Source of the DNA: Stegostoma tigrinum
Lineage: Eukaryota
NCBI RefSeq assembly: GCF_030684315.1
Contig: NC_081396.1
Location: 2,170,001-2,234,000 of the forward strand
DNA: 64,000 bases
Reading direction: 5' to 3'
Of the stretch, positions 13,317 through 55,833 are shown piece by piece (positions within the stretch are counted from its first letter, which is position 1; each line of letters starts with the position of its first letter). Position numbers and translations under genes: made by a program. Under the pieces are notes generated by a model. That model was not told the DNA's origin. It saw only the letters and a program-made list of their open reading frames with translations, and did no database searches.

Positions 13317-15607
13317 ATGCACGAACCAGTCATTGCCCCCTTCTTTGTCATTTGTTGTTTAATTCTCGCTGTGTTTGGTGCCCCTGGTAACGCACTCATG
13401 CTTCAGAAAATTATTTTTGTAATTGTGTATTTCCAGAAATATATTCTTTCCCTTTCAGGATTTGGCAGAATTTTTGCAACATGCAGCATTTCCAGTTTAA
13501 GGGAATCCAACTGGTCTCCAGTGTGTATAATAGTTTATGGGACACTATCTGAGCTGTGGCAATTCATCGTGTATTACTGAAAATTTGATTTTTATGAAAG
13601 CCAATGCGTTCTTGAATGTCAAATGTTCTGTGCTTACAAAAAAAATAGTCTCTTATACGCTGAATGACGAATTGTGATGATTGAGCATGCATGATTATTA
13701 AGCTGCACTATTGCCATATCCCAAATTGCATTCCAATTGAGCAAAATGAAACTTGGCGTTGTAGTCCATTGTAGGATTAATAGTTTATCAGAATGCAGCA
13801 AAATCTCGTTCTGACCATGTATCATATCTGGAGTTCCCAATAATCGTGGCATTGTTCATGTCATTTTCGGAATAACTTAGATGTTCGTTTAAAAGTGTGA
13901 ATATGCAAAATTTTCAAGCTCTCATTAATTGGCTCCTCTATTACAAGGTCCCCCATATTTGACATAATTATATTTTTGAAATACAATTACCCAGAAAAAA
14001 TTGCTTCAGAATTATTCGGAGCAGCAATTGCACATCCTATCACAGCATGTCACTTTATGTTGCAAATATCACAGGAAAATTAGTGAACAAGTTTAATCCG
14101 AAGACGAATGAGATATTGCGAAACAAAAGTTCTAAAAGGGACTTCTGAAAGAAGGGGACAGAAGTAGAACCGCTGAGTGGAGAACTCCAGTGATTTGGGC
14201 TTTACTAGTTAATCTGTTCCTGACAGAGTTGAAAGTATCAATGAGAGCGATGCACGGGAGACATCAGCACAGTTAAGAATAGAATTCAGGCAGTTGTATG
14301 ATGGTGCAGGAACATATGTGGAGAGAATCTGGAGCATGTGAAAACTCAAAGGACCAGATTGGTCATCGCTAATGAGGATGCAACGTTCATGAAGGTTTGT
14401 GGGTGACAGTATATCTGGGGCTTCAAATAAATAGGTTCATGAGCACCACATTATTCCATTCATTCTAAGGTAAGAAGTTGGTTCAGGAAATTTTCTAAGT
14501 GATGAAACAGCGATGTCAATTCTTGTGACTTATTGCATTGATAGAGTTTTGACGCTACATTGGATGTCAATCACTTGTCAGTTTTTCCACAACAGGCAGA
14601 GACTTGAAGTGGCAGGGGGTTGGTTGAAAATTGTTTCATAAAAGATTGTATGAAGGATGTTTGGAACCAGTTCCACAATGTCTTTCTCTTTTGATCTCTC
14701 ACAGCCAACTTGCTTGCTGTCATAATCCTATCTCGAGGACGATGCGGTCTTTCCCAATGCATCACTTTCTACCTGGTGGCGATTGCAGTCACTGATTTTC
14801 TTGTCATCATCACTGCAGTAATCTTCAACCGAATCAGCCGCATGTACTTCCGAGAAAGTGTTTTGTCCACCACTCCTGCGTGCACTTTCAGCGTTTTGCT
14901 GGCCTATATCATTCGGGATTGCTCAGTCTGGCTGACTGTCGCCTTTACCATTGACCGTTCAGTGGCCATCTGCTTCCAGAATTTGAAGACCAGATACTGG
15001 ACAGAGAAAACTGCATCTTTGGTCATCGGAATAATCTCTGCCCTGTGTTGCATCAAGAACATCCCATTCTACTTTATCTATGAACCCTTATACATCTTCG
15101 ATGAGGTGTCCTGGTTTTGCAATGTAAAAGCCATCTTCTATATTTGGCCAGCTTGGCAGGCTTATGATTGGTTCTTCCAGATCTAAACTACTTTTCTCCC
15201 ATTCTTTGTCATTCTGATGCTTAATACCCTGACGATGAAACAAATCCTAGCAGCCAACAGAGCTCGCAGGAGACTCCAAGGTGCAGAGATGCAACAAGAC
15301 CCAAAGATGGCCAACCGCAGGAGGTCTATTACTCTTCTGTTCACCATCTCTCTCAGCTTCCTCCTACTGTGGGCACCTCTTGTCGGGCATTTCATTTTTA
15401 CACAGCTTAAAGCGAAGAGCTACTTTGGTGGTCTGAATTTTAGTGATCCGCAGTATATCTTCCAAGAGATGACCAACGCTTCTTCAGTTACTAAGTTCCT
15501 GCAACAACGTCTTTATTTATGCAATCTCTCAGAATACGTTTCGACAGGAGCTAAAGATCATTCTGATATACCCCTTTGTCATCCTCATCAATTGTTTTAA
15601 GCAGTGA
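13317..15607 (+). pseudogene. GPR139/GPR142-like class A GPCR pseudogene (exons 13317-13386 and 14705-15607)
   Basis: Same exon structure as 53541-55833, but TAC>TAA at 15184-15186 and a +1 frameshift near 15478. Confidence 0.9.
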
Positions 15608-15889
15608 GAGGAGAAATTGCAATAGAGAGAGTGCATGAAGCTGAACGTAGATAAAGACCAAAGTACGCTATCAGAAGCTGATAAGATGCCACTGACTGAT
15701 GCGAAACCAACACAGGCGATTGTTTAATACGAGATGATTGGCACTAATGCAGAAAACTACCAGAAGATAGAGATGCACAGCCAGAGACATACACAGAAAC
15801 CCGGGCTCCACGGTATACCCTAAGTGGGCAGATACAGTTCTATTTCATCACATAGACTGTTCGAGGATTCTTTCAGCATTACATTGACA

Positions 15890-17385
15890 GTTTAAAACCA
15901 TAATCGTCAGAAAGCACGTATTTATGTCTGTGCATTGACGTGATTACACTGATTTTTCTGAGAACTTTACCAGCCGCTCGGAGGACAACCAATATGTTGT
16001 CATTATTTAATGATGGTGAGAGGGATAAACAATAAATTTGCAGACCAGTCTCTCTAAGTTCAGTGGTGGGGAAAATTCCGGAATCAATTCTGAGAGATAG
16101 AAATAATGTGCACTTGCAGAAGTACAGATTAACTAAGAACAGAGAGCAGGGTTTTGTGAAGGGGAGGTCACAGCTGACCCACTTGATTGCATTATTCGAA
16201 GCGGTGACTAAGTGTGTAGAGGAGAGCATTGCATTTGGTAGGGACTACTTGGACTTCAGTAACGAGTTTGATCAGTTCCCCATAGGAGACTCATAAACAA
16301 GGTAAGAATCCGTGGAATTTAAGGACGTTTCGCTGTTTTGATGCAGAAATGAGTGAGGGACAGAAACCAGTGTGTGTGCTTCAGTGTGCCCTTGAGACGG
16401 CTAGCCTGTTTTCAGTGGGTTCTGCAGGGATTAATGTTGGAAAGCATCTGACTGCAGCTTATATAAACGTTTTAAACATGAGTGTTCCGGGTGTTGATCA
16501 GTGATTTCTTGAATGATTTGGAAATTTGTGACATGAAAAATGGCGGGAAAGATAGTCTCAGATTTCAGGAGGAGATTGATGGGAGTGTCAGATCGACTGA
16601 CCAGAGGCAAATGAAATTCGAACTTCATAAATGTGAGATAATGCACGGGGACAGGGAAAAAAAACAAGGCAAGTGAACACATGAGGACACATAGGACATT
16701 GGGAAGTACTAAATACCAGTGAAATATTTGCATGCATGCCCATTGATCCTTTTATGTGATGGGGTAGTTACAAAAGTAAATGGGATACTTGCTTTTATTA
16801 ACAGAATTGTAGAGCTTAGAGTAGTGAGGTCATAACGAAATTGCATTATGATAGGCCACAGGTAAATTATTGGTTTCAGTTTTTGAATCCTTAACAGAGA
16901 TGGAATTGATTTGCTCTAGAGAATGTGCAGAGGAGATTTGGTACCTGTTGACTGGGCTGGGGGTTATAGATATAAAGAAAGTATGGATTTCCTTTGGAGT
17001 ATAGAGGACTGGGGCATAAAGGTCGGCATATATGAAATTATAAGGGTTGTGGGTCGAAAGGACAGGCATGGATGTTTCCGATTGTTTGACATTTCAATGC
17101 ATGAATGTCAGGTAAAACGGAACAGGTACAGAAAAAATGCGAAGAAATTTTTCAGCCAGAGGATTTTCAGAACCCAAATTGTCTTGGAGGGTGTCAAGCC
17201 AAAAGTCTTGATAATATTCGATAAATGTTTCCACATGCACCTCTGATCGAAAGTCATTCAAGGCAATTGAAAAAACTGTTCAAACGTGAGATTGGAATAG
17301 TTCAATGCTCCTCATTGAACAGTACAGTTTTGATGGTGCAAAAGACGTTTTGCTGTGCTGTAAACGGCTTTGACTGTATGACTCT
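15890..17385 (+). mobile_element. CR1-like LINE RT remnant
   Basis: RPVSLSSVVGKIPESILRD, QGFVKGRSQLTHLI, YLDFSNEFDQ, plus a 3' tail. Confidence 0.88.
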
Positions 17386-17420
17386 GTATATCAATATGCG
17401 TGTGCCTGTGTCTAAACGTC

Positions 17421-17615
17421 NNNNNNNNNNNNNNNNNNNNNNNNNNNNNNNNNNNNNNNNNNNNNNNNNNNNNNNNNNNNNNNNNNNNNNNNNNNNNNNN
17501 NNNNNNNNNNNNNNNNNNNNNNNNNNNNNNNNNNNNNNNNNNNNNNNNNNNNNNNGTGAGAGAGCAAAATAGAGAGAGAGAGAGGGGGGAGAGAGATGGG
17601 TAGATAAATAGAGAT

Positions 17616-17646
<31 letters not shown>

Positions 17647-17660
17647 GACAGTCTCTCTCA
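17421..17660. repeat. Assembly gap (17421-17555) adjoining a (GA)n microsatellite
   Basis: 135 N followed by a GA-rich simple repeat; homologous gap at 57671-57809. Confidence 0.95.
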
Positions 17661-18595
17661 GAGTTGGCTGAGATAAAAGTTACAACGGTTGGAAAGCTTC
17701 ATCTGGGGTGGCTGTCGATAGATCAATCAGGCCACAGTTTATTTCCTGATTATATCACCTTATATATTTTGTGGTCCAGTGCCAGACTCTGGCATATTTT
17801 AGCTGCTACACTGGCACAACTTGGCACAAAAAGGCCAGCAAAATATAGGGCCATACAGTGCGTATTTATTATGCTCCTGAAGCTCCTCCGTGAAATAAAT
17901 TTTAGAAAATTCCATCTTCATCCCTGACACTTGTGGAGAATTCCATTAATGTAAATGTGGGCTGCATGTCTGGGGGCTGTATGTATCAGTGTAATATGCA
18001 ACATCTCTATGTTGTCTCAGAGGAGCAGGTCATCGATGCCACTGTCACTTCTGTTCCAAAGTTTTTGAGCAGAGCGATGATTCACAGAGTCTCCGTTACT
18101 TGGATCTGAAACAATTGAGAATTTATGCTTCTTTTTTTTTCTCTCATATATAAGAACACTGGGTTCATGGAATGCCCAAGTTTGGTGCTTTTATAGAGAA
18201 CTCAGAGTCACGTTAACATCACGTACTTGTCAGAAACCCGCCATAAATAAACCAAATGATGAGTATTTGCAATGTGAAATGACTGATGGGTGTTGGGAGG
18301 TGATAATTCTAAATTGCACACACACAAATTGTTCAGATATCTGCGCATGTGCTCAGTTGAACTTCCTGTGTTGCAATTGGTTCGGTGAGACAGCAGTTGG
18401 ACCTCAGTGGATGGAAACAGCTTGAGATAGATTGCAGGCAGATCCCTTACACCCGACATCCAACTCAAATTTTCTCCCTCACAATACAAACACAGAACTC
18501 ATTGGGAACAACAAATGTTAAAGTTTTCCCACTGAATTAATCTCACACCTAAATATCTCAACTGCCTGCTCACTCACATCCACGCTCACAAGCAA

Positions 18596-19122
18596 GGGCA
18601 GTGTGGTGACTTTGAGGTTCGCACTGTTGCCCCACAGTGCTTAGAACACAGGACACAGAACAATACAGCACAGAACAGGCCCTTCACCCCTCAATGTTAC
18701 CCACTCTGTGAACTAATCCATGCCCCTCCCCCTACACCATCCCATCATCATCCATATGCTTATCCAAGGACTGTTTAAATGCCCCTGATGTGGCTGAGTT
18801 AACTACATTTGCAGGCAGGGCGTTCCACGTACCACTACGCATTTTCAATATCCACGTGAGGGAGCTGTATGATGTTTGCACATTCTTCTCATGTTTTTGT
18901 GGGTTTCCACCGGGTGTCCCAGTTTCAACCCACAGTCCTCAGCTTTGCAGGGTAAGTAAATAAGCAATGCTAAATTCTCTGTAGTGGCCATGAAAAAGTA
19001 GGCAAGGGGAATTAGCAATGGGAAATGCAGAGATAGGGTAAGGGGGATGGATCTAGGTGGGAAGCTCTTCATAGAGTTGGCGTGGATTTTTTGGGCTCAA
19101 TGGCTTTTTTGTACACTGTACG
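18596..19122 (+). mobile_element. HE1-type V-SINE interrupted by a CR1 3' fragment (~18650-18840, minus)
   Basis: tRNA-like head, V-domain gtttgcacattcttc...gtgggtttccaccgggtgtccc, and a CR1-derived tail. Confidence 0.75.
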
Positions 19123-19599
19123 CAGTCTCCAGTGAATGGATCAGCAGCTCGTGGCGTCACACAGCACACAACTGCTTCGAAACAGACAACTGTCAAAACC
19201 CAAAATGAAAGCAAAGTGCCGGGAAAAGGACAATAAAGTTGCGTTAAAAGACGTTTCCACTACTTTTGAAGAACGACCAAAAATGCTAAAATGTTTGCAC
19301 AATCAAATCAGCCTCATTGAACGCAACGGATACATATAACTGAAAAAAGGAAACAGTTCCAGAAACCAGAAAAAGCTTCTGATAACAGAATGACGCCTCA
19401 GTAAAGTAAAGTGCTTGTTTTGAGGCCTCACCAAACTAGTAGGGCTTGAATGAAATCTTTCTGGGATGAAATACATGAGATACAATAACCTCACAGTTCA
19501 GTTTCTGAGAAAAGCAAGGTCTTTGCAGATTTGAATGGAGACATTTCAACAGTGCAACCACATCTCAAAGTTCGGTTCCATGCAAAATTCAGAAGTAGA

Positions 19600-19878
19600 A
19601 TCCGTGCAGTGTTGGGACAGGCCCTTCAGCCGAACTAGTCAACAACTGCCCTCAAAGCCTCTCATCCAGACACATGCCCCGATTCTACGCATCTCTACCC
19701 CCTATATCCTATTTAGAATGGCCAATTCAACTCGCTTAATCAGCTATGGACAGCGGGACGAAATCCATACAGACACACGGTGAAGTGCAAACTCCACACA
19801 GACAGTCGCCCAAGTTGGGACTGAACCCGGATGTGTACTTTTGTGAGACAGTGCTTACCGCTGGGCTACTGTACTGCA
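19600..19878 (-). mobile_element. HE1-type V-SINE
   Basis: Minus strand ...gggcgactgtctgtgtggagtttgcac... V-SINE core with a tRNA-derived head. Confidence 0.82.
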
Positions 19879-19879
19879 C

Positions 19880-19951
19880 AGAAAGGACAGGATTTGATCC
19901 TGCCACTTCACACGTACAAAGCAAGCTCTCGGTAATTTGAGCTAATTCCCT
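19880..19951 (-). pseudogene. tRNA-Ala-like pseudogene
   Basis: Minus strand gggaattagctcaaatt..gagagcttgctttgtacgtgtgaagtggcaggatcaaatcctg aligns to vertebrate tRNA-Ala; the anticodon and T-loop are degenerate. Confidence 0.72.
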
Positions 19952-20303
19952 TAACCTTGCAGCTGATTGCAACTGAGCTGTTTACTTTTACCAGTCACGT
20001 CTAACTCAAATGAATGATTTAACTTTGCAAGTTTGACACAGATTGATGACTGCTGCTGGAAATGATAGATTGCATGTAAAAAAGAAATCAGTTGCCCAGA
20101 CTTCATTCTCTTCATGACGATTGGATAATCTAGTGTTCTGCCTCCTGCAGGTCCATTTTTCCATCAAAAAATCACAACCTTCCCCACCCAGATGAATGTG
20201 TCAAATGAGAGATAATGGGAACTGCAGATGCTGGTGAATCCAAGACAACAAAATGTGAGGCTGGATGAACACAATAGGCCAAGCAGCATCTCAGGAGCAC
20301 AAA

Positions 20304-20337
20304 AGCTGACGTTTCGGGCCTAGACCCTTCATCAGAG
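20304..20337 (-). ncRNA. Minimal hammerhead ribozyme core in PLE pLTR (1)
   Basis: Minus strand CTGATGA-a-gggtc-ta-ggccc-GAAAC-GTC-ag: conserved core, stem II and GUC cleavage triplet. Confidence 0.75.
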
Positions 20338-20678
20338 AGGGGGATGGGGTGAGGGTTCTGGAATAAATAGGTAGAGAGGAGAAGGCGGACCAAAGATAGA
20401 GAGAAAAGAAGATCGGTTTAGAGAGTACAGGCGGGGAGGTAGGGAGGGGAGACGTCAGTCCAGGGAAGACGGACAGGTCAAGGAGGTGGGTTGAGGTTAG
20501 TAGGTAGGAGATGGGGGTGCGGCATGGGGTAGGAGGAAGGGATGGGTGAGAGGAAGAACAGGTTAGGGAGGCAGAGAGAGCTTGGACTGGTTTTGGGATG
20601 CAGTGGGTGGAGGGGAAGAGCTGGGCTGGTTGTGTGGTGCAGTGGGGGGAGGGGACGAACTGGGCTGGTTTAGGGATG

Positions 20679-22773
20679 CCAAGATAATAAAATGTGAGGC
20701 TGGATGAACACAGCAGGCCAAGCAGCATCTCAGGAGCACAAAAGCTGACGTTTCGGGCCTAGACCCTTCATCAGACAGGGGGATGGGGAGAGGGAACTGG
20801 AATAAATAGGGAGAGAGGGGGAGGCGGACCGAAGATGGAGAGTAAAGAAGATAGGTGGAGAGAGTATAGGTGGGGAGGTAGGGAGGGGATAGGTCAGTCC
20901 AGGGAAGACGGACAGGTCAAGGAGGTGGGATGAGGTTAGTAGGTAGCTGGGGGTGCGGCTTGGGGTGGGAGGAAGGGATGGGTGAGAGGAAGAGCCAGTT
21001 AGGGAGGCAGAGACAGGTTGGACTGGTTTTGGGATGCAGTGTGTGGCGGGGAAGAGCTGGGCCGGTTGTGTGGTGCAGTGGGGGGAGGGGACGAACTAGG
21101 CTGGTTTAGGGATGCAGTAGGGGAAGGGGAGATTTTGAAACTGGTGAAGTCCACATTGATACCATGTGGCTGCAGGGTTCCCAGGCGGAATATGAGTTGC
21201 TGTTCCTGCAACCTTCGGGTGGCATCATTGTGGCACTGCAGGAGGCCATGATGGAAATGTAATCTAAAGAATTAGAGGGAGCGTGAAAATGGTTTGCGAC
21301 TGGGAGGTGCAGTTGTTTGTTGCGAACAAAGCGGAGGTGTTCTGCAAAGCGGTCCCCAAGCATCAGCTTGGTTTCCCCAATGTAGAGGAGGGCTCAACGG
21401 GTACAGTGGATGCAGTATACCACATTGGCAGATGTGCAGGTGAACCTCTGCTTAATGTGGTAAGTCATCTTGGGGCCTGGGTTAGGGGTGAGGGAGGAGG
21501 TGTGGGGGTAAGTGTAGCATTTCCTGCGGTTGCAGGGGAAGGTGCCGGGTGTGGTGGGGTTGGAGGGCAATGTGGAGCGAACAAGGGAGTCACGGAGAGA
21601 GAGGTCTCTCTGGAAAGCAGACAGGGGTGGGGATGGAAAAATGTCTTGGGTGGTGGGGTCGGACCTCTACACCCAGAATATTCAGACCATTCAGAAGTGT
21701 TTCTCCCTGCGAGTCCTGAAACAGACACTCGCAGCCATGCGCCGGCACCTCCACAGACTGCAATCCAGCCTGCCGCAGCTCAGAGCCTCCCTCTCCCAGA
21801 CCTGCAAAGGGCCTCTGCTGTTTTTTATTGTCCGCAGGATCCACAGACTGAACACCCAGTTTTACTCAGCTTTACTGGACACCAAAAATCTTCAGTACAA
21901 AAAACTCACTGGCCCCTGCCACACACAAGAGGATTCCTGCGCCTGCCAAATCCCGAGTCTGTCCTTGCCCCTCGCCCACCATGCACCCGCCGCCCTTGAC
22001 CATGAGGACACGGCCGGAGTCCCCACCGATGACGTCTCATCCGCATCCGCCGGCCAACTGCTTCCGGGACCGCTGCTGCAGTCACCACCTCCACTTCCAG
22101 TCACAACACCTCACACACCAGCCTCACCGTAGCTGCTGCCGCTGACCCCGATACTCCAACCGCCGACGGAACCCCGCCCACGGCCGACGCCGACGGAACC
22201 CCGCCCACGGCCGACGCCAACAGAACCCTGCGCACGGCCGACGCCAACGGAACCCCGCCCACGACTGACGACCTCATTGCTCCGCCCACAACCTCCACAG
22301 CCAGCAAGCCTCGAGGAGACAGCCACACTGAACCCTGCCGCATCTTCACCATGCCCCCAGACCTCCCACTGACTAAGGACGAACGGTCAGTCCTTAGTAA
22401 GGGGCTCACCTTTGCCCCCCTACAACCACACATCAACGAATCCCAGTCACGATTGGACATAGAGCAGTTTTTCCGCCACCTTCGCCTCCACGCCTATTTC
22501 TTCAACCGGGAGCCTAACCCTCCCTCCACTGACCCCTTCACCCGCTTCCAAGACAAGTCCTCCTCCTGGACACCACCCCCAGGCCTCCTACTTTCCCTCG
22601 ACCTCTTCATCTCCAACTGCCATCGAGACATTAACCGCCTCAACCTCTCCACCCCTCTCACCCACTCCAACCTCTCCCCTGCGGAACGGGCAGCCCTCCC
22701 CTTCCTCCGCTCCAACCCCAACCTCACCATCAAACCCCAGACAATGGTGGCGCAGTGGTAGTTTGGCACACTG
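20679..22773. repeat. Left arm of a ~2.1-kb inverted repeat (partner 23919-26014)
   Basis: Reverse-complement match throughout, including the internal 3'/5' inversion junction ggggtcggacctctacacc and the 27-bp ADGTPPTAD repeats (22162-22263 vs 24428-24532). Confidence 0.93.
20743..20776 (-). ncRNA. Minimal hammerhead ribozyme core in PLE pLTR (2)
   Basis: Same core in the tandem pLTR copy. Confidence 0.75.
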
Positions 22774-25030
22774 GGGGATTCTCTAAGGGCGTTTGTGGCA
22801 GGGGCGGGGTGTGAGGGATGTGTTGCGGGTAATATGGAAGACGCGGTCAAGGGCGTTGTCGATCACTGTGGGGGGAAAGTTGCGGTTCTTGAAGAACTTG
22901 GATATCTGGGATGTGCGGGAGTGGAATGTCTTATCGTGGGAGAGGATGCGGCGGAGGCGGAGGAATTGGGAATAGGGGATGGAATTTTTGCAGGAGGGTG
23001 GGTGGGAGGAGGTGTATTCTAGGTAGCTGTGGGAGTCAGTGGGCTTGAAATGGACATCGATTACAAGCTGGTTTCCTGAGATGGAGACTGAGAGATCAGG
23101 AAGGTGAGGGATGTGCTGGAGATGGCCCAGGTGAACTGAAGGTTGGGGTGGAAGGTGTTGGTGAAGTGGATGAATTGTTCGAGCTCCTCTGGGGAGCAAG
23201 AGGCGGCGCCGATACAGTCATCAAATGTACCGGAGGAAGAGGTGGGGTTTGGGACCTGTGTAGGTGCAGAAGAGGGACTGTTCCACGTTACCTACAAAGA
23301 GGCAGGCATAGCTGGGGCCCATGCGGGTGCCCATGGCCACCCCCTTACTCTGTAGGAAGTGGGAGGAGTCAAAACAGAAGTTGCTGAGGGTGAGGACGAG
23401 TTCGGCTAGGTGGATGAGGGTGTCGGTAGCGGGGGACTAGTCGGGCCTGCGGGACAGGAAGAAGCGGAGGGGCTTGAGGCCATCTGCATGTGGAATGCAG
23501 GTGTATAGGGACTGGACGTTCATGGTGAAGATGAGGTGATGGGGGCCAGGGAATTGGAAGTCCTGGAGGAGGTGGAGGGCGTGGGTGGCGTCACGGACGT
23601 AGGTAGGGAGTTCGTGGATCAAAGGGGAGAAAATGGAGTCCAGATAGGTGGAGATGAGTTCGGTGGGGCAGGAGCAGGCTGAGACGATGGTTCGACCAGG
23701 TCAGGCACGGTTGTGGATTTTGGGAAGGAGATAGAAACGGGCCGTGCTGGGTTGGGGAACAAAGAGGTTGGAGGCTGTGGGTGGGAGGTCCCCTGAGGTG
23801 ATGAGGTCATGAATGGTGTTGGAGATGATGGTTTTGTGCTCGGGTGTGGGGTCATGATCGAGGGGGCGGTAGGATGTGGTGTTGGAGAGTTGGCGTCTGG
23901 CCTCGGCGATGTAGAGGTCAGTGCGCCATACTACCACAGTGTCACCATTGTCTGGGGGTTTGATGGTGAGGTAGGGGTTTGAGCGGAGGGAGGGGAGGGC
24001 TGCCCGTTCTGCAGGGGAGAGGTTGGAGTGGGTGAGAGGGGTGGAGAGATTGAGGCGGTTATTGTGTCAACGGAAGTTGGAGATTCAGAGGTCGAGGGAA
24101 GGTAGGAGGCCAGGGTGTGGTGTCCAGGAGGAGGACTTGTCTTGGAAGCGGGTGACGGGGTCAGTGGAGGGAGGGTTAGGATCCCGGTTGAAGAAGTAGG
24201 CGTGGAGGCGAAGGTGGCGGAAAAACTGCTCTATGTCCAATCGTGACTGGCATTCATTGATGTGTGGTTGTAGGGGGACAAAGGTGAGCCCCTTACCAAG
24301 GACTGACCGTTCGTCCTCAGTCAGTGGGAGGTCTGGGGGCATGGTGAAAATGCGGCAGGGTTCAGTGCGGCTGTCTCCTCTGGGGTTGCTGGCTGTGGAG
24401 GTTGTGGGCGGAGCAATGAGGTCGACGGCCGTGGGCGGGGTTCCGTTGGCGTCGGCCGTGGGCAGCGTTCCGTTGGCGTCGGCCGTGGGCGGGGTTCCGT
24501 CGGCGTCGGCCGTGGGCTGGGTTCCGTCGGCGGTTGGAGTATCGTGGTGGGCGGCAGCAGCTGCGGTGAGGCTGGTGTGTGAGGTATTGTAACTGGAAGA
24601 CGAAGTGGTGACTGCAGCAACAGTCCCGGAAGTGGTGTGGCCGGCGGATGCGGATGTGACGTCATCGGTGGGGTCTCCGGCCGTGTCCTCATGGTCAATG
24701 GCGGCGGGTGCATGGTCGGGGAGGGGCAAGGACAGACTCGGGATTTGGGAGGCGCAGGAATCCTCTTGTGGGTGGCAGGGGCCACTGAGTTTGTTGTACT
24801 GAAGATTTTTGGTGTCCAGTAAAGCTGAGTAAAACTGGGTGTTCAGTCTGTGGATCCTGCGGACAATAAAAAACAGCAGAGACCCTTTGCAGGTCTGGGA
24901 GAGGGAGGCTCTGAGCTGCGGCAGGCTGGATTGCAGTCTGTGGAGGTGCCGGCGCATGGCTGCGAGTGTCTGTTTCAGGACTCGCAGGGAGAAACTCTTC
25001 TGAACGGTCTGAATATTCTGGGTGTAGAGG
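22774..25030 (-). pseudogene. Penelope-like ORF (N-terminal region + RT), frameshifted
   Basis: ERSVLGKGLTFVP, FYLLPKIH, IFTMNVQSLYTCIP, GVAMGTRMGPSYA, RYI/DDCIG (1-nt insertion), YLEYTSSHP..CKNSIPYSQFLRLRRI. Confidence 0.92.
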
Positions 25031-25034
25031 TCCG

Positions 25035-25570: not shown

Positions 25571-25918
25571 CCCCACCGCATCCCTAAACCAGCCCAGTTC
25601 GTCCCCTCCCCCCACTGCACCAAACAACCAGCCCAGCTCTTCCCCTCCACCCACTGCATCCCAAAACCAGTCCAAGCTGTCTCTGCCTCCCTAACCTGTT
25701 CTTCCTCTCACCATCCCTTCCTCCTACCCCAAGCCGCACCCCCATCTCCTACCTACTAACCTCATCCCACCTCCTTGACCTGCCCGAATTCCCTGGACTG
25801 ACCTCTCCCCTCCCTACCTCCCCGCCTGTACTCTCTCCACCGATCTTCTTTTCTCTCCATCTTTGGTCCGCCTCCCCCTCTCTCCCTATTTATTCCAGAA
25901 CCCTCACCCCATCCCCCT

Positions 25919-25952
25919 CTCTGATGAAGGGTCTAGGCCCGAAACGTCAGCT
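25919..25952 (+). ncRNA. Minimal hammerhead ribozyme core in PLE pLTR (3)
   Basis: ctgatga (25921-25927), gggtc/ggccc stem II, gaaac, gtc (25946-25948). Confidence 0.75.
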
Positions 25953-41341: not shown

Positions 41342-41377
41342 TTACAGTCACTTAGGTGGATCCAGCTATTCTGTCCG

Positions 41378-45192: not shown

Positions 45193-45819
45193 TTTTGCCT
45201 TTTGCTGTTTTTTTTATTTATTAGCACTTTCACTTTTTACTATCTCTATATACTACAGCAGTGTCTTTAGTCTCAACACCCACTTCAGTGTCCTGACCTT
45301 CACGTGGGGGATTTGTCCTCTTAACAACTGGTCTCAGGCAGGGTGGTTGAAACAGACAGACACTCTAACTACTCAATACTTCGGTCTTATACTAACGCCG
45401 CTCCCTTTTCACTCTTGCCCGACACAGGGTTTCAACCCCGGTCACCAGGGGAAATCTATCCTCCTGGATTTTAAAAATTACCAGTTATCTGACGTGGGGA
45501 CTCTAACCCCGGCCACCGGGGGACTCTAACCTCCCGGATTTCTTTAAACAGTTCCACCGGGGTCTCGAACCTCCCGGATTTCTTTACTCACCTGGGGACT
45601 CGAACCTCCAGGCTTTACTGATTTAGCAGTCATCCAAGACCATGAGCTGTCTCGGGTTCCATCAGTACAGAGCCATGCAGGGGCAAGGGGTCGCACGGGT
45701 GGCAGGTTAGTGAGAGAGACCAAGGTGAATCGTACCTTGCGGGCCCATCCGTCTCACTGCACCGACACGCGAACGATCACTTACTCAGCCCTCCACCTGA
45801 TACTGCAGGACATGTTGGA

Positions 45820-45837
45820 ACCCTGCTCGTTGCGCCA
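45820..45837 (-). promoter_or_regulatory. tRNA-Ser(UGA) primer-binding site (copy B)
   Basis: Identical to 6919-6936. Confidence 0.88.
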
Positions 45838-46895
45838 AATGTCAAGCTCGTTTTCGGAGACCCTCATGGACTTGCTGCAATAACAAGACACTGACCTGTT
45901 TAGAAAAAAAACACAAATCCTTTTATTACCAAGCAAGTACCAGCTGTGGAGAATCACTGTACTTCACCCGGCACAGGGTGCAGAGACTTGCAATTAATTC
46001 TCCCTGACCAGCGGACAGTCCCCGCTTTTCATACTTTACAAAAGACATGATACATAAAACAATTACGACAATAGACAAAAACAGGATACCAAACAATTAT
46101 TACATCAACAACATAAAAGACCAGGATGCAGTATCAATTGCTCATGAAGTAGCTGCTAATGGCAGGAGGCGATTTCGAGTTGTTGTCCGGGAGAGATTGT
46201 GATTTCAACTTGCCAGTGTGTCTGGCTAGTACAAAGTCAGTCCCCTGTCCCCTTTGTCAGCAACAGAAGTTACATGTTTTAAAGGTTTCACGCCTTTACA
46301 AATTTTCCCCACCTAACCAGTTTGATTCTAATTTTAGTTCAGTCAGGAAGCTTAAGACAGTGTCTGCGAACTGATGTGTGAGAAGATAAGGAGTTACAAA
46401 AGCTTTACACTGAATTCCTAGCTGGGCAGGAAGCTTCACGGCAGTGCCTGCATACCGATGTGTAGGCAGATAAGACTTTACTTCTATAAATTAAAGTCTC
46501 TGCATCGGAATCAAATGCAGATAAAAGACTTTAATTTATCGAAGTAAACAAATCAATGGAATGTTATCGCATTAAAATCTCGTCTGAACAGGAAGCAAAT
46601 CTAACAGCAACAACGCCTAACTCTAACCAGTAGACCTCCAGTGAAGACAGGAGAGCGCACGCCGTTTCTCAATGATATTTTTGCTTAATCCTTTTACAAT
46701 TTTACAGCATGCTAACCAGAGAGAATCTTCACCGACAAAACTATTGTATCATCGATTTTTTTTTTGTTTGTTTCCAGCACGGAAAGAACCCTTCAGCGCA
46801 GAGTCAATGTTTGTGATCCAGTCGTCCCTCTTCAGAATTGTGTGTGAACATACAATGGCAGACAAATCACTTTCATCACATGGTCTTGTCTGCAG

Positions 46896-47274
46896 GCTCC
46901 AGACAGAACGCATGTCCTTTGTATAATAAAAAAAACTCGACTACAGTGAAAAAAGGACGTTTTCCACTGGTCTCCTGACCGTTTTACTCCCCCATTTCTT
47001 ACTCATCACTTTGCAATTTTTACTGCTTCAACTCGTTCTTCAGCAAGCGTGTTGTTACATCATCTTAACAACCAGGATAATATGTGGATCCAGAGTTTCG
47101 TAGCTCTGTAAGAATACAGCCAGTGGATCATCACCTGATCCAGAGAACAGGGATAATACAATGGATTCAGAGCTCATTTCCTCTCAGCTCTGTTGTGATA
47201 ATCTGTCTCTTGTGGTCTACAATAGTGCAGCCTATTACACACCGTCAGTGATCAGAAATCACTGAACAACAACC
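46896..47274 (+). pseudogene. Decayed V pseudogene (deleted in copy A)
   Basis: Acceptor tgcag; TTVKKG..LVS*(C); GFRAHF; NSAAYY (47221-47238); caccgtc-19-acaacaacc. Confidence 0.5.
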
Positions 47275-48561
47275 TGAAGAATAGAGTATAAGAATACGTT
47301 TCAGAGTTTCACAAGAACGTAATGGCATATCACATTACATGACGAAAAACTTGGCCAAAGCAATCGGTTACAATGAGTGTTTTCAAGGATGGAAATAAAA
47401 CAAATCAGTTTTAAAATATTTCCAGAAGAAATTCTGGATTTTAGGGTCCAGATAGCTGAAGGCACGATCACCCACGGTAGGATGTTAAATATCGGGGATG
47501 ACGGATGTCTGGAAATGGAGCTCGATGCACAAGGCTCAATAGTATAAAGTGCTGCTGATACATGAGATTTGAAATAATGATATTGAACTGTTGGAGAAAT
47601 TCAGCATGAATCTGTAGAACACCTTTCAAAGGAGAGTCATTGGAATTGGAACATTTAATGTTTCTGTCTTTATTATCCTGCCAGTGTCGTTGTTCTCTCC
47701 AACACCTCTTGGTTTAATAAACGTCTGGAATGATTCCTGGTTATTTATATGATAGAAACTAAGCGCAGCCGCATCTTTCTTCTATGAATTGGGATTACCT
47801 TTAAGACACTTAAAATCACAAGGATTTCATCATTATAACCAGAACAAGTTTTAGCAGTGATTTAGCGAGAAAATTAAGAAGGAGTAAGCAAAGTTACAAA
47901 TTGTAAAAAAAAAACCAGACGCGAGGGCATTCACATTAGATCACATACCATTAATTAGTGATAAAGAGAGGAATGAGGCTCCTTCAGAATGAACAGCGAC
48001 TGCCACAATCATTGGTCCCGACTGCAGAGGTGGAGAGCAATGATGATTCACTGGACTGACCGTTGGACTGGTCGGATTGTCCCGAGGGATGTCTCGGGCT
48101 GCACTCTCTGCAGTTTAAAAAGCGGGGAATGAACGCATCAAACGTAGAAATTCTCTCTCGGGTTCAACTGAAACAACTGTCAGAAAAGGCTGTTGCAGAA
48201 ATTCTTTCTTTATTTCTGTGAGAAATTTTGTTTGTCATCTAAACAATATATGTTCACCACAGCATTCAAACGAGACTATATCATCTTTTAATCCAGTCCT
48301 CAGTTCCAAGACTGAATGAAGCCACCAGGTCAGCTGTTCATTTTTCTTGATCAGACGTTTGACCAAGTTCCCACGAGCTGCTCAGCAGTAAGTAATCACC
48401 AGCAAGTTTGAAGTAACGTAAGGATGGGGCATGGAAGGAGGAAGAGGAAGTGGTAGTGGGGATCGTGGATTCAGGGAGGTTGTTATCGGTTATCCTAGCA
48501 TTACAGATCCACATTCTTTGTGAAACGAATTTCTCAAATAGAATCACTTAAGGATGGCTGC

Positions 48562-48847
48562 AGGGATCACTGACAGAACACGTCGCCATCTTCAGCCCCA
48601 TTGCTGCGTATTGGGAAAATGTGGGAGTGGTTTGCAAAACCAGCTGGCAGAGCTGGTGAAATGACATAACACAGCAAAAACCTGAACATGGAGGGGTTTA
48701 TTGCAAACAGATTGAGCTCTTCAAATACCTGAACATCGTGGAATTGCTGAGTGTGACAGCGAGCATAGAAGGATGTGAAAATAAAACTGAGCGTAATGCG
48801 AATTCAAACCACAGTGACTAGGAGTACGTATATGGTATGCAAAAAGC
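48562..48847 (+). pseudogene. Decayed Ig/TCR V-like segment with RSS (copy B)
   Basis: Paralog of 8320-8605; cacagtg 48810-48816, 22 nt, gcaaaaagc. Confidence 0.5.
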
Positions 48848-49349
48848 TGACCACCCTGACGATTACATACACAGTGACACAGAGCACGGAGAAGGAGCTA
48901 AACGAAATCATAGTTTCAGACGTTTGTAGAGCTTGACTCTGAGCCCAAGGTTGGGGTGGGATAAGCAGGATGATATGTCGCCATGATCTGCTCAATTAAA
49001 TGGTATTTATAAATTTTATCAATGCAGACCTTATGGAGGAAATATGTTGTTCACTGGAAGAATCCTAGTCATCACATAACCCAGCGTTTGTGTAGCCTGC
49101 TGCATCGTTGCACACTGTCAATGGAAAATCAGTCAGTCAAGGAGATCGCATGCTTTATTTGGCACAAAAGGTGGATTCATCAATAACTTGTGTCTTCTAA
49201 TTGGAGACGTATTGTAGGAGGGAAAGTGTGTGTTTGGACTACAGCAAACAGCAAGGGTCAGGGACTGAATAATTTCCACATTCATTGGGGTCAGGGAGGT
49301 GTTGGACATGCAAAGTGAATAACATTCCTCAGTGTTGTATGTACATGTA

Positions 49350-51120
49350 CAATATACAAAAGTACACAACAAAACGGGTTTTTAGGCCCACGATGTTGTG
49401 TCAAACATAACTCAAAATGAAACATTATTTTCTCCCGGCCACTGGTCGACATCCCTCCATTCAATGCATATTCATATGCTAATCAAACAAAATCCACTGG
49501 TTGTCATTATATTATCTGTCTCATCTACCACCCCTGGTATTGTGTTCCAAGCTCCTATAACCCTCATAGAAAATGCCTCTCGCATCTGCATTGAACTCTC
49601 TCCTCTCATCTTAATGTCTCCCAGTGTTATATATTTTAAATCTGAGAAGTAAATTCTGGCCTTCCAACCGATCTATGCATCTCATAATTTTGAAGACTTT
49701 TATCGAGTCGCCCCTCAAGATTCTGCACTCAAGAGAAAACAAGCCCAGTTTGCCCTAGCTTCTCCTTATTACTCATTCTCTCTCATGCAATAGCATCATG
49801 GTGAGCCTCTTCTGCACTCTCTGCAAAGCCTGCACACCCTGTCTGCAATGTGAACACGAGAACAGAATGCAATAAGCGCCCAAAACAATGTCTTACAAAG
49901 TTGCAAGATGACATTCTGACTCTTGGATCAATTTCCCAGAACAGGAAAAGCAATCATGCCACGTACCTTCTTTACCACCATATCTATTTGCGTGGCCACT
50001 TTTAGCATGCTGTAAACTTGAAATCCAAGTTCGTTCTGGAGACAAATGTTGTTCAGAGTCCTGCCACTAACTGTGTACTATTCCTTTACATTTGTTCTTA
50101 CAAACTACAAAACTTCACATCTACCAGATAAAACTCCATTTGCCATTTCCCTTCTGCAACTGATATATATTCTGCTGAATCCTTTGACAAATTCTACACT
50201 GTACACAATTCCAACGATCTTTGTATTACATGCAAACTGACGAACCCACACCCACCAGTAGTTTCGTCTCAGTCCTTCAACTAATACACTAATTTACTTA
50301 ATATATAACTCATACATTACATCTACATTTATATCTAAGTCATTTAAATATATCACAAACAGCAGATGTCCCACTGTAGATCACCACACAATACTATTCG
50401 TCACTGGCCTCCAAACTGAAAAATATTCTTCCAAAACTACACTGCCCTTTCAATGGGCAAGCCTATTGCGGATTCAAGTGAACGTGCATCTGAATTTCCT
50501 TTACAAGACTGCATGAGTGACCTTTTTGAAAGCCTTAACAAAATCCATGCTCCATCCACTGCTCGAACTTTATCGATCACCTTTGTCACCTCCTCGAAAA
50601 AAACACTTCAGATGTGACCTGCCCTGCTCCAAGTCATGCTGATTGCCCCTAATTCGACCATTTTTTTCCAAATGTGTTTAAGCCCTATCCGTTAGAATTT
50701 TCTCCAATATCTTTTCAACTACCAATGTGAGACACTCTGGTCTACAGTTTCCTGGATTATCTTTCTTTCCATTCTTTGACAGAGAACCAATATTAGCTAA
50801 TCTCCAGTAATATGGGGCCTCTCCATTGGCAATCAAGTATACAACGATCGTAGTTTAGGTCCCTGAAATCTCATTTTGCCTCTTTAACAGTCTGCGGCAG
50901 ATATTGTCGGGCCCTGGGGACTTATCTGACTTACTCCTCTTCAAGATAATCAACACCGCATCTTTCTTGATCACGAAATGTCATAGCATATGCTTATGTT
51001 TCACACTCTCAATGTCCTTCTCCTGGATGAATACGGATGCAAAGCACATATTTATGATCTCACCCAAATTCTCTGTCTCCGTACACAACTTCCGTCTTTT
51101 ATCCTTGAGTGGTGTTAGAT
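49350..51120 (-). mobile_element. CR1/HER1-like LINE (copy B)
   Basis: Paralog of 9110-10885. Confidence 0.85.
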
Positions 51121-53540
51121 TCTCTGACTGTGTCTCTTGGATGAATTCGGATTATTTTTAACACGACTTATCAACACGAAATCTTGATTTTAATTGTTGT
51201 TTCTAGTCTTTTCTTTAAGAAAGATAAATCCAAACAAATATTCCAACATCAGTGACACATCTGGTTTTCGAATCCATATTTCCAAATGTGGTCCATGTGC
51301 ATTCTATCACTGGTCCAGGAAGCTCCGAGCCCAGCTAATTCTGAACTTTATATTACACTCAATCTTCTGAACATGCACAAACAATTTGCTGATTTTGACA
51401 GCACCAATATTTATATGTCACATATAATCCTGCATTCCTTGCTCAATCCTGTTGTTTGCCTGTTCTACCCACTTCTGGTGTCAGTGGTTCTCTTCTGTTG
51501 AAATGTATTTTATATATAATTATAGTTGTCGAAAAATATCCGCCTATTCGTTTCGTAATAATTGACGTGGAGTCACTCATAAGTATGATTTTATTTTAAT
51601 TCATTGCACTTCAACAATACATCATTTAAAATATTTTCATTCAATCACTTCCTGGTTCTGCATTTTCTGGAGAAGAGAGTTCCAAACTGTTCAGACACTT
51701 TCAGGATACTAATGTTAGCTGGAAACTTTTTCAGCCACAGCCTACACCATCGTTGATCATGTATGATCATGTAAAAATTGGAAACTCCGAAGGACATTCG
51801 GCCCCCAAGCCGGCTCTGCCATTGTGTATAATAGTGCCTGATACTCCCATTGCTGATTGAATATACCGATTTGCCCGGGTGAGGAACTGTTCAAAAATGC
51901 ACAAGTAATTCGATTTCTTCTAGAAAATCGGGCAGATTGTTCCGCAATGAATCTAGAAACGTTCACTCTCTGCATAACAGATACTCAATAGCAGAATTAT
52001 GCACCGTCTACAGGATGCACTGTGCAAACATATAAAATTGGAACACGGCTGAAATTCTTCGATCATATGAACAAATTTTGCTTATTGTAGGAACAAACGA
52101 TAATTATTTGAATAGTAGAAGTGGCTCCGTGTTAGTAAGTTACCAGTCTTTTTGATACTTTGCTTATGCGTGTCACCTTGATACATGATTACAGCTGTTC
52201 CTCCAGTTCTGTTTCCCAGGTAAGTGCTACTTTACAAGCAGTATCTCCTTCGCGGTGAAGTTTTCTTATTGGAGCTAACTATAATGTCAGCTTTAGCACT
52301 TTGAATGGGGCCCGGTCTCGTGCTCTATCTAGCTTCTATTGCATATAACTGCTCTGTTTCTCTTAATGTTTTACCAGCACATGATTCCCACTGGTCGAGT
52401 CAGTGCCCCTTTAATGAACACAATGAACCCACAATTAATAAATGCACAAGATCCTATTAATTGCGGCATAACATTTGATTCTAATTGCAATGAGTGCCGA
52501 ATTTGATCCTGCCTCTGTGTGCATTGTGGATTTCGGCAGTTATAACTGAATTTAGAACTATTTATTTCATGAGACTGGAGGCTGAGCCAGCTGGCACGAT
52601 GAAACTGTGTCACTGGTTGTGCTAAACTTCGCTTCACCAATTGAGTCTTTTTCTTTTTGTTCAGATTACGTACGCTCTGTCTCTGTTAACAATAAGCCAC
52701 AACATGTCTCTGTTTCTTTTGAACCAGAATATATCTGAGTTGTTGTTTCTCTAGGCTGTGTCAATAGCATTAATTGTTGATGAAATGTTACAGACCTCTT
52801 TTGACGTTTTGCAGATTCGGTCCTTGTGCACATTCCAGATGATTTTATCCCATTTGCTACTGTACCAGATGATGAACATTTCTGTAATACATTAAACAAG
52901 CCTATCTTGCAATATTAAATATTGACACTGGTCAACTGTTCCTGCTACAGAAGCTCTGAACAGGAGCTTCACCACTTGCATGGCCTTCCTGCACTTCCGA
53001 TTGATCTAATCAAATGAAGGATATTTTTCAGATTCACATTGGTCAAAGTTTGCACTTGAGAGTCACCGCAACATTCAACTGAAATTTTATGGAATTGTTT
53101 GAGCAGTTTCTTCGCATTTGGCACTGGAACATAAAATAATAAAGGCAAAGGATGAAGCACATGGACGCTGAAAATAGAGATGAAACTGAGAAATAAGATA
53201 AATAAGAAGTGGGGAAGAAAAAGGTCTCATGATGGGGACCCTGTTCACTGCTTTCCATAAGTGGATTTAATTGAGAAAGACTGAAAGTCATGGTCTGGGA
53301 AGTTGGACGAACAAAGAAATTACAACGAGGTTGCCAAAAAAATGAAACTTAATCATTTATTTTCGTGGAAGGCAAAAAGTAGTGAGTTAATCTGCTTGTG
53401 CAGCAAAATGTCAGTAAGAAGCTTGTTGTGTCTCAATTGTCCCTCAAGAGATTATCGCTCAAAATAAAAGAGGGCCCATTTGAAAGTGCCACAGAGGAAA
53501 CTTCCACAGCAACAACAGCTCCTACAGTTTATGAAAGACG

Positions 53541-55833
53541 ATGCACGAACCAGTCATTGCCCCCTTCTTTGTCATTTGTTATTTAATTCTCGCTGTGTTT
53601 GGTGCCCCTGGTAAGGCTCTCATGCTTCAGAAAATTATTTTTGTAATTGTGTATTTCCAGAAATATATTCTTTCCCTTTCAGGATTCGGCAGAGTTTTTG
53701 CAACATGCAGCACTTCCAGTTTAAGGGAATCCAACTGGTCTCCAGTGGGTCTCATACTTTATGCGATACTATCTGAGTTGTGGCAATTCATCGTTTATTA
53801 CTGAAAATTTGATTTTTATGAAAGCCAATGTGTTCTTGAATATCAGATGTTCTGTGCTTAAAGCAAAATAGTCTCTGAAACGCTGAACGACGAATTGTGA
53901 TGCTTGACAATGCATGACTATTAAGCTGCACTATTGCCGTATCCCAAATTGCATTCCAATTAAGCAAAGTGAAACTTGGCGTTTTAGTCCATTGTAGGAT
54001 TAATAGTCTATCAGAATGTAGCAAAATCTCGTTCTGGACTTGTATCATATGTGGAGTTCCGAATAATTGTGATATTGTTCATGTCGTTTTAGGAATGACT
54101 TACATGTTCGTTTAAAAGTGTGAATATGCAAAATTTTTAAGCTCTCATTAATTGGATCCTCTATTGCAAGGTCTCCCATATTTTACATAATTATATTTCA
54201 GAAATACAATTTCCCAGAAAAAATGCTTCAGAATTATTCGGAGCAGCAATTGCACATCATCTCACAGCATGTCACTTTATGTTGCAAATATCACAGGAAC
54301 ATTAGTGAACAAGTTTAATCCGAAGACGAATGAGATATTGCGAAACAAAAGTTCTAAAAGGGACTTCTGAAAGAAGGGGACAGAAGTAGAACCGCTGAGT
54401 GGAGAACTCCAGTGATTTGGGCTTTACTAGTTAATCTGTTCCTGACAGAGTTGAAAGTATCAATGAGAGCGATGCACGGGAGACATCAGCACAGTTAAGA
54501 ATAGAATTCAGGCAGTTGTATGATGGTGCAGGAACATATGTGGAGAGAATCTGGAGCATGTGAAAACTCAAAGGACCAGATTGGTCATCGCTAATGAGGA
54601 TGCAACGTTCATGAACGTTTGTGGGTGACAGTATATCTGGGGCTTCAAATGAATAGGTTCATGAGCACCACATTATTCCATTCATTCTAAGGTAAGAAGG
54701 TTGCTCCGGAAATTTTCTAAGTGATGAAAGAGTAATGTTAATGTTAATGTTGGGACTTATCGCATGGATGGAGTTTTGATGCTGCATTGGAAGTCAATCA
54801 CTTGTCAGTTTTTCCACTACAGGCAGAGACTTGAAGTGGCAAGGGGTTGGTTGAAAATTTTTTCATAAAAGATTGTATGAAGAATGTTTGGAACCAGTTC
54901 CACAATGTCTTTCTCTTTTGATCTCTCACAGCCAACTTGCTTGCTGTCATAATCCTATCTCGAGGACGATGCGGTCTTTCCCGATGCATCACTTTCTACC
55001 TGGTGGCGATTGCAGTCACTGATTTTCTTGTCATCATCACTGCGGTAATCTTCAACCGAATCAGCCGCATCTACTTCCGACAAAGTGTTTTGTCGACCAC
55101 TCCTGCGTGCACTTTCAGCGTTTTGCTGGCCTATATCATTCGGGATTGCTCAGTCTGGCTGACAGTCGCCTTTACCATTGACCGTTCAGTGGCCATCTGC
55201 TTCCAGAATTTGAAGACCAGATACTGTACAGAGAAAACTGCATCTTTGGTCATCGGAATACTCTCTGCCCTGTGTTGCATCAAGAACATCCCATTCTACT
55301 TTATCTATGAACCCTTATACATCTTAGATGGGGTATCCTGGTTTTGCATTGTTAAAGCCAACTTCTACATTTGGCCAGCTTGGCAGGCTTATGATTGGTT
55401 CTTCCAGATCTACACTCCTTTTCTCCCATTCTTTGTCATTCTGATGCTTAATGCCCTGACAATAAAACAGATCCTAGCAGCCAACAGAGCGCGCAGGAGA
55501 CTCCGAGGTGCAGAGAAGCAACAAGACCCAAAGATGGCCAACCGCCGGAGGTCTATTATTCTTCTGTTCACCATCTCTCTCAGCTTCTTCCTACTGTGGG
55601 CACCTCTTGTCGGGCATTTCATTTATACACAGCTTAAAGCGAAGAGCTACTTTGGTGGTCTGAATTTCAGTGATCCGCAGTATATCTTCCAAGAGATGTC
55701 CAACATTCTTCAGTTACTAAGTTCCTGCAACAACGTCTTTATTTATGCAATATCTCAGAATACTTTTCGCCAGGAGCTAAAGATCATTCTGATATACCCC
55801 TTTGTCATCCTCATCAATTGTTTTAAGCAGTGA
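53541..55833 (+). CDS. Intact GPR139/GPR142-like class A GPCR, 323 aa (exons 53541-53610 and 54932-55833)
   Basis: GT-AG phase-1 intron gives FGAP|ANLLAVIILSRGRCGLSRCITFYLVAIAVTD; seven hydrophobic segments; SVWLTVAFTIDRSVAIC, NIPFY, WFC, PFLPFFVILMLN, LLWAP, LLSSCNNVFIY; 70+902 nt = 324 codons including the stop. Confidence 0.93.

Follow-up and report, generated by a model that had tools for sequence, protein, structure and literature searches.

A class A GPCR gene duplicated together with TCR alpha-type V segments, probably as a passenger, in a likely shark

Results and Discussion

We have analysed a window of 64 kb (the whole stretch of DNA considered here) that holds two partial copies of one 38-40-kb duplication, detected by self-BLAST, in which a two-exon class A GPCR gene lies among V segments of the TCR alpha type. 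The best explanation is, we believe with reasonable confidence, the passive co-duplication of a passenger GPCR among these segments. The receptor would have been copied with the V segments in the 38-40-kb duplication, as a passive passenger of birth-and-death V expansion, likely at the TRA/TRD locus of a shark. The window would form part of a multi-megabase elasmobranch alpha/delta V region and the receptor would work from its own promoter, in some tissue that has nothing to do with which V is used. Whether a T cell deletes it, flips it or leaves it where it is would depend on geometry alone, as with the olfactory receptor (OR) and trypsinogen passengers of mammals. A preliminary description of this DNA had proposed a more ambitious reading, discussed below, and had kept hitch-hiking as its null model; this null model fits everything seen. 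The arrangement adds a non-olfactory GPCR, duplicated with TRA-type V segments in a likely shark, to the passengers of antigen-receptor loci.

The duplicated unit

The visible part of the first copy (unit A) covers 1060..29578 and the second (unit B) covers 39342..64000, where it runs off the window end, both on the plus strand. The duplicated blocks are offset by 38.3-40.3 kb, or by ca. 34.4 kb past a 5.8-kb insertion of unit A, and the two units differ by 3.3-8.3% substitutions, retroelement and spacer DNA included. The divergence of the receptor gene between units (4.9%) falls inside the range of the surrounding blocks, which indicates that the whole unit was copied. The duplication is real, but where the preliminary description spoke of every ~39-kb unit there are only two units in the window, and neither is complete.

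Both units carry the same degenerate LTR retroelement on the minus strand, at 1559..7350 in unit A (integrase rve E 2e-14; terminal repeats 8.5% apart) and at 39841..46307 in unit B (rve E 6e-13; terminal repeats 9% apart), the latter with a reverse transcriptase fragment on the opposite strand (Pfam, E 2e-16). Its left flank is common to the two units, so it was inserted before the duplication. Private to unit A is the GC-rich 5.8-kb insertion (20203..26014, unstranded), an inverted pair that self-BLAST detects as a 2.1-kb inverted repeat. It has no counterpart in unit B and gave no Pfam match for the two ORFs tested; it may be Penelope-like.

The receptor gene

The intact receptor (copy B, 53541..55833, plus strand) consists of exon 1 at 53541-53610 and exon 2 at 54932-55833, joined by GT-AG splice sites around a phase-1 intron that lies inside TM1, and encodes 323 aa in a stop-free open frame. 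Its exon-2 ORF matches Pfam 7tm_1 (E 5.7e-19, profile positions 2-260) and retains the class A landmarks in altered form (DRS in TM3, WAP in TM6, NVFIY in TM7); profile and landmark residues together place it among the class A (rhodopsin-type) GPCRs. Hydropathy exceeds 1.5 in six regions, with TM7 below the cut-off. The paralogue in unit A (copy A, 13317..15607, plus strand; exon 1 at 13317-13386 and exon 2 at 14705-15607) is disrupted by a TAA at 15184-15186, which reads TAC in copy B, and by a 1-nt insertion near 15478, with both halves still matching 7tm_1. Frames, splice sites and lesions therefore bear out the preliminary description of two-exon 7TM copies, one intact and the other disrupted. 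Exon 1 and the 1 kb upstream of it are retained in both copies, this upstream part being 6.2% diverged. Copy B is flanked by V-like segments, at 34.6-34.9 kb on one side, where the intact V also lies at 31.4 kb, and at 61.2 kb on the other, that is, a gene that is neither Ig nor TCR has V segments on both sides.

This is not an olfactory receptor by the usual marks, as it has two coding exons and Pfam returned 7tm_1 and a sub-threshold Srx match only. The preliminary description had called it GPR139-like. Two exons are also found in GPR139, a trait that is not diagnostic alone, and the position of the TM1 intron, the very short N-terminus and the non-NPxxY TM7 probably resemble that receptor too. 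Class A membership and two exons are shared with GPR139; in contrast to the conserved GPR139, the gene in the window is a duplicating and decaying paralogue with DRS in TM3. PMC7318219 describes GPR139 as a two-exon gene for a highly conserved brain receptor (human-zebrafish identity 70%), and GPR139 and GPR142 as receptors activated by L-Trp and L-Phe that signal through Gq. GPR210 forms a related fish clade (PMC6504862, in part). For an expansion of GPR139-like genes in cartilaginous fish, which the preliminary description had taken as known, we found no support in the literature searched.

Comparing just the two receptor copies, we obtained dN 0.027 and dS 0.066 (Fisher p 0.02) with a dN/dS of 0.41, not near the value of 1 that the preliminary description had held against its own proposal. 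Nonsynonymous differences amount to 20 in 745 sites, compared to 76 in 1316 for the intron (p 0.001). There is purifying selection on the receptor in at least one lineage. The gene is accordingly selected and hence not junk, although the ratio gives no pointer to lymphocytes.

The V segments

Seven V-like segments were identified in the window, one of them intact with a canonical RSS. This TCR alpha/delta-type V (31417..31852, plus strand; V-set E 2.7e-17) has a leader at 31417-31462, an intron and a V exon at 31549-31852, and reads through 116 aa without stops, with the Cys-Trp-Cys residues in place. A 23-bp-spacer RSS (31853..31891, plus strand) directly abuts the V exon, with two mismatches in the heptamer and a perfect nonamer; the window has a single instance of the 23-RSS pattern, which 2 of 200 shuffles also contained. 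From the end of this RSS to the ATG of copy B there are 21,649 bp, in agreement with the 21.6 kb that the preliminary description had placed between a functional-looking V with its 23-RSS and the intact receptor downstream.

The V is identical at 83 of 100 residues to that of P0010, a V-J-C chain that in its constant part shares 68% identity with zebra shark TCR alpha. Leader and V together are identical at 94 of 116 residues to those of a rearranged chain. Identity to mammalian TRAV is 41-45%, and most of the PDB matches listed are with TCR alpha chains. The segment thus combines a split leader, a V-set exon, an open frame and a 23-RSS with TRA V segments as nearest relatives. Judged from its sequence, it is a genuine TCR-alpha-type segment, and the same comparison places it in a family whose members join J-C alpha in a shark.

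The remaining six (6/7) are pseudogenes in which no frame is free of stops and the best RSS matches carry 3-6 mismatches. Those of unit A lie at 26690..27030 (plus strand; tblastn and six-frame reading, stops in all frames, degenerate 23-RSS with 3 mismatches) and 28517..28900 (plus strand; frameshifted, V-set E 1.9e-4, degenerate RSS), and their unit B counterparts, both found by tblastn and six-frame reading on the plus strand, at 61168..61508 and 62938..63325 respectively. The same approach revealed another on the plus strand at 33012..33355, with stops, a frameshift and a degenerate RSS, while the sixth, at about 34645..34920, is inverted on the minus strand (tblastn E 4e-8; the shark alpha chains P0014, P0016 and P0017 also match). 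The statement that the V segments share the orientation of the receptor consequently holds for most of them but not for the one at ~34645-34920, and the term RSS-bearing suits the near-canonical 23-RSS at 31853-31891 but not the six others, which are degenerate (3-6 mismatches). Decay of receptors and V segments is unlinked, the dead receptor being in the same unit as the intact V. Apparent RSSs at 8568 and 48810 (22-bp spacer) are chance matches that no V exon precedes; a minus-strand ORF that overlaps them has a sub-threshold DUF2418 match only.

Joining geometry and the fate of the receptor

Neither tblastn with the J and C sequences of P0010, nor a scan for a 12-RSS plus FGxG, nor a motif scan revealed a credible J or C segment in the 64-kb window. 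This, and the fact that six of the seven V segments are dead, could suggest an orphon array, in which the V segments lie away from TRA/TRD, or beyond C in an unproductive orientation, and never rearrange, leaving the receptor unaffected. A precedent of sorts is the great white shark, where alpha/delta V segments at 8.4-17.1 Mb, on both strands, lie past a C-alpha model that occupies 8.20-8.35 Mb on the plus strand (PMC12227049 table S1). We consider this unlikely, as the V at 31417, amid decayed neighbours, has kept its leader and V exon open, along with its splice sites and an RSS close to canonical, and matches a rearranged chain at 94 of the 116 residues.

By textbook mechanics, with a J to the right and in the same orientation, a join made by the V at 31417 deletes the intact receptor, and the preliminary description was correct on this conditional point, namely that deletional joining would excise copy B if J lay downstream in the same orientation. 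Were J-C instead to the left and on the other strand, which is the arrangement of most of the listed epaulette shark V segments, joining would be by inversion and copy B would stay untouched. In sharks and rays, alpha/delta V segments of either orientation are dispersed across megabases, and entire IgM clusters lie between them (PMC12227049, in part). Of the V models listed, 15 of 25 for the epaulette shark and 5 of 9 for the stingray point away from C-alpha (PMC12227049 table S1). Deletion of the receptor is therefore not to be assumed; going by the 15/25 epaulette shark segments, an inversion that spares it would be about as likely.

The preliminary description saw in this arrangement an undescribed coupling of a receptor repertoire to V(D)J recombination. 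V-J deletion would remove the downstream copies, the alpha enhancer would switch on the nearest upstream copy and selection would maintain the linkage; copy B, ca. 10 kb upstream of the V predicted in unit B, would be one example, and T-cell clones would both carry and express different members of a large family of orphan GPCRs, depending on their V-alpha. If such V-dependent expression were true, RAG would shape a repertoire of non-immunoglobulin receptors, a second clonal repertoire, which would surprise specialists. Receptor and intact V do have the same orientation, 21.6 kb apart, rearrangement of this V family is seen in a shark, and the dN/dS of 0.41 is compatible with a maintained receptor. 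In unit B, the V that corresponds to the intact one is predicted near 65,800, past the window end, and if intact it would, being ca. 10 kb downstream of copy B, provide a geometry in which an enhancer might reach the receptor. Nevertheless, with the only intact V of the window, deletion would retain the dead copy A and move that one towards the enhancer. Rearrangement of TRA usually involves both alleles and is repeated, so that any code from V to receptor would be blurred. The proportions of V segments facing away from C-alpha (15/25 in the epaulette shark, 5/9 in the stingray) also argue against coupling, and so does the presence of the same anatomy in mammals (PMC4574546, in part), where we found no literature linking OR10G2 with MAIT. 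Given the mammalian precedents, the mixed V orientation and the dead upstream copy, we find the coupling unsupported and very improbable.

A less demanding alternative is an incidental read-out, in which a retained copy would be weakly transcribed in T cells through the open V region or a nearby enhancer, without function and with the linkage unselected. Copy B and the V predicted in unit B have a geometry that permits it, and exon 1 with the upstream 1 kb was kept in both receptor copies. On the other hand, a weak motif scan detected no V-promoter-like CRE/AP-1 motif in the 500 bp that precede each receptor copy, compared to one ca. 110 bp upstream of the intact V, and we regard such a read-out as quite improbable too.

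Known passengers of antigen-receptor loci

Passive co-duplication, the explanation that we favour, has described parallels, and the preliminary description was right that ORs at TRAV and trypsinogens at TRB are such passengers (PMC4574546, PMC8945572, both in part). In humans, OR10G2 lies between TRAV1-1 and TRAV1-2 and OR4E2 between TRAV1-2 and TRAV2, and in the mouse Olfr1507-1509 lie between TRAV1 and TRAV2 (PMC4574546, in part). Like the receptor described here, these are class A GPCRs in a TRA/TRD V array that would be deleted if upstream V segments join. They differ in that the receptor in the window has two exons, an intron in TM1, a 7tm_1 match and no olfactory family among its Pfam matches, that it shares a duplicated unit with V segments whereas the ORs are at the 5' end of the locus, and in the lineage, likely a shark. 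Trypsinogens T4-T8 are found between TRBV29-1 and TRBD1 (PMC8945572, in part), and further passengers are ADAM6 in IGH and ZNF280A/B and PRAME in IGL (PMC8945572, PMC2685407, both in part). These are also functional non-immune genes duplicating in an antigen-receptor locus, between V and D/J, but they represent other gene families and other loci.

Another close system is the elasmobranch alpha/delta region (PMC12227049, in part), with V segments and pseudo-V segments in mixed orientation, spaced by tens of kb and with unrelated genes between them. The same paper describes a panel of 20 nurse shark tissues, thymus, spleen, olfactory epithelium and brain among them. A term search of its text and supplements (GPR, G protein, GPCR) found no GPCR named; its table is limited to Ig, TCR, PSMB5 and VSIG1 models, so that this silence is no evidence of absence. 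The available parts of PMC12208981, PMC10620051 and PMC6795676 hold nothing on a shark GPCR-V arrangement, and a GPCR duplicating with TRA-type V segments in a shark was not found in the literature searched. That both sharks and mammals should have GPCRs of different families among their alpha/delta V segments would be a mild curiosity, perhaps telling of where birth-and-death families settle.

Read contigs and the reality of the two units

A read search on 53500-56000 gave four runs from one study, possibly the source of the assembly itself, with no RNA run among those listed, which speaks neither for nor against expression. Over 53300-64000 these runs give cover in 30 of 30 bins, receptor intron included, and none of the joints listed (15 of 21) is the exon 1-exon 2 joint of the receptor, so the four runs behave as DNA. 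Their contigs match unit B (0-2 differences), unit A and, at three places in the pseudo-V region, a third and more diverged version, which would fit a small, ageing duplication family. The unit A-type contig at 56376-56813 has 37 differences and 3 gaps, exactly the difference between A and B. It could be argued that the tandem is an assembly artefact, two haplotypes of one locus set side by side, and indeed none of the listed contigs spans the whole of 53300-64000 and the unit boundary lies outside that stretch. The two units are nevertheless 3-8% apart with large private insertions, and the contigs contain unit A, unit B and a third version (in one study, maybe the source of the assembly), which makes an artefact extremely improbable. 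In run X3 the summed contig depth at receptor exon 2 is ca. 4-5 times that of a single contig, a depth that is not a copy number. A letter at 53579 that creates a stop in exon 1 appears in run X1 only, and run X4 has two contigs that fall between A and B in sequence (55589-56006 and 56548-57006); they could be chimeric unitigs or represent one more copy, and were set aside.

Results and Discussion

The two copies of a two-exon class A GPCR gene found here, one intact (copy B, 53541-55833) and one disrupted (copy A, 13317-15607), are probably best explained as a functional passenger gene that was passively co-duplicated with V segments. The analysis drew on the 64-kb window, on proteins related to the V segment, on four sets of read contigs and on the literature. 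Self-BLAST of the window gave collinear blocks at ca. 1-29.6 kb and 38.9-64 kb (units A and B), differing by 3.3-8.3% substitutions per block. The stretch at 29.6-38.9 kb, including the only intact V segment, is without counterpart inside the window; judging from the offset, its copy would begin at 64 kb, with its V near 65.8 kb. The coordinates of the preliminary description were exact and its observation was largely right, the duplication itself being seen, but its "every ~39-kb unit" rests on two units, both partial, since the unit B counterpart of this stretch falls outside the window.

A degenerate LTR retroelement, with the same left flank in each, is present in both units (1559-7350 in unit A, 39841-46307 in unit B). 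Its terminal repeats are 8.5-9% apart, slightly more than the units are, and it therefore likely predates the duplication. Between units it diverges by 3.3-4.6%, against 5.8-8.3% for the rest outside the receptor gene, a lower value that may reflect gene conversion. A ca. 700-bp piece of it (about 43590-44291) is present in unit B and missing from unit A; this piece overlaps an RT-like ORF whose strand is opposite to that of the integrase. Only unit A carries a 5.8-kb GC-rich insertion (20203-26014), an inverted pair with 2.1-kb arms (93.7% alike) and 440-bp terminal repeats; two of its ORFs were tested and gave no Pfam match, and presumably it resembles a Penelope-type retroelement. Both units also have a stop-to-stop frame of 142 codons with a hydrophobic stretch (8325-8753 and about 48570-48995, minus strand), whose sole Pfam match was a sub-threshold one to DUF2418; the unit A frame is open, the unit B one interrupted by a single stop. 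It is overlapped on the plus strand by a motif resembling an RSS with 22-bp spacer (8568, 48810), upstream of which there was no V exon. Very high-copy interspersed repeats lie at 58955-59400 and about 60100-60400, summed contig depth reaching 60,000 to >400,000 in bins at 58.7-59.4 kb.

The identity of the receptor rests on Pfam and local analysis, "GPR139-like" being the name used in the preliminary description. Copy B has two exons, encodes 323 aa with a phase-1 intron within TM1, and matches Pfam 7tm_1 (E 5.7e-19), while the reading frame of copy A is disrupted at codon 184 by a stop and near codon 281 by a 1-nt insertion. They are separated by 14 synonymous and 20 nonsynonymous changes (dS 0.066, dN 0.027, ratio 0.41, Fisher p 0.02). 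Synonymous divergence equals that of the intron (p 0.76), and nonsynonymous divergence is below the intron value (p 0.001). The receptor has therefore been functional, in a tissue on which this test is silent. In this pairwise comparison, the nonsynonymous rate would fit free drift of one copy and constraint on the other (p 0.75 when set against half the neutral rate).

Contigs from four DNA-like read runs of one study, possibly the source of the assembly, were compared with 53300-64000. Some matched unit B (0-2 differences), and others matched unit A, with exactly the A-B difference at 56376-56813 (37 differences and 3 gaps) and 61434-61850 (24 differences and 4 gaps). Among 40 variant letters listed, with 1,107 more beyond these, 32 were those of copy A. 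A third version appeared at three places, 61325-61860 (53 differences vs. 38 for unit A), 62743-63123 (41 vs. 26) and 60091-60556 (53 differences, spanning the point where unit A carries the insertion), so that a third unit likely exists for the pseudo-V region. In the receptor, new letters were few and confined to exon 1 and the intron; they may be allelic.

Only one of the seven V-like segments in the window (31417-31852, plus strand) combines an open frame with a canonical 23-RSS; in the remaining six, all frames contain stops and the RSSs are degenerate. A CRE/AP-1-like motif, a putative V promoter element, is found at 31305-31311, about 110 bp upstream of the start codon of the intact V. 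This V shares 83% identity with that of P0010, a shark-type V-J-C alpha chain, and 41-45% with mammalian TRAV proteins. The constant part of P0010 in turn matches TCR alpha of zebra shark at 68% and of epaulette shark at 48% identity. By these matches to P0010 and its TCR alpha relatives, the V segments are likely of shark TRA/TRD origin. No J or C segment was found within the 64-kb window. An inverted pseudo-V (34645-34920, minus strand) resembles other shark alpha V families (46% to P0014 over 57 residues) more closely than it does the intact V, and the unit thus mixes several V families in both orientations. Recent V duplication is normal in nurse shark, where >93% identity is shared by 12 of the 17 germline alpha/delta Vs obtained from BACs (PMC5931798).

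Passenger genes are familiar from antigen-receptor loci. As in the window, GPCR genes sit among Vs in mammals, where OR10G2 and OR4E2 (human) and Olfr1507-1509 (mouse) are flanked by TRAV genes (PMC4574546). Trypsinogens lie between TRBV29-1 and TRBD1, ADAM6 inside IGH, and ZNF280A/B and PRAME inside IGL (PMC8945572); TRB trypsinogen genes number five in cattle, eight in human and 20 in mouse (PMC2685407). These layouts already imply that passenger genes, among them GPCRs, are lost depending on the V used. Our literature search, largely of freely available papers, found no description of a receptor of the present type among shark Vs.

The preliminary description went further, proposing that V-J joining would delete receptor copies if D/J segments lie downstream, so that V choice would set the GPCR content of a T-cell clone. 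We regard such functional coupling as very improbable. It would require J segments that lie right of the V on its own strand, and elasmobranch Vs occur on both strands. Among the automated gene models of PMC12227049 (table S1), epaulette shark has 25 V-type models beyond the C-alpha model, two Ig-type and two pseudo models among them; 10 share the strand of C-alpha and 15 do not. In stingray the strand is opposite for five of nine "TCRad V" models, and IgM clusters separate the Vs from C. Great white shark Vs are spread along about 9 Mb, with both strands represented. By analogy, deletional joining of the intact V would be roughly an even bet. With J-C on the left, inversion would leave copy B outside the inverted segment. 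Deletion, on the other hand, would remove copy B and retain, 15.8 kb upstream, the pseudogene copy A. The geometry most favourable to coupling would instead pair copy B with the V predicted for unit B, some 10 kb further downstream.
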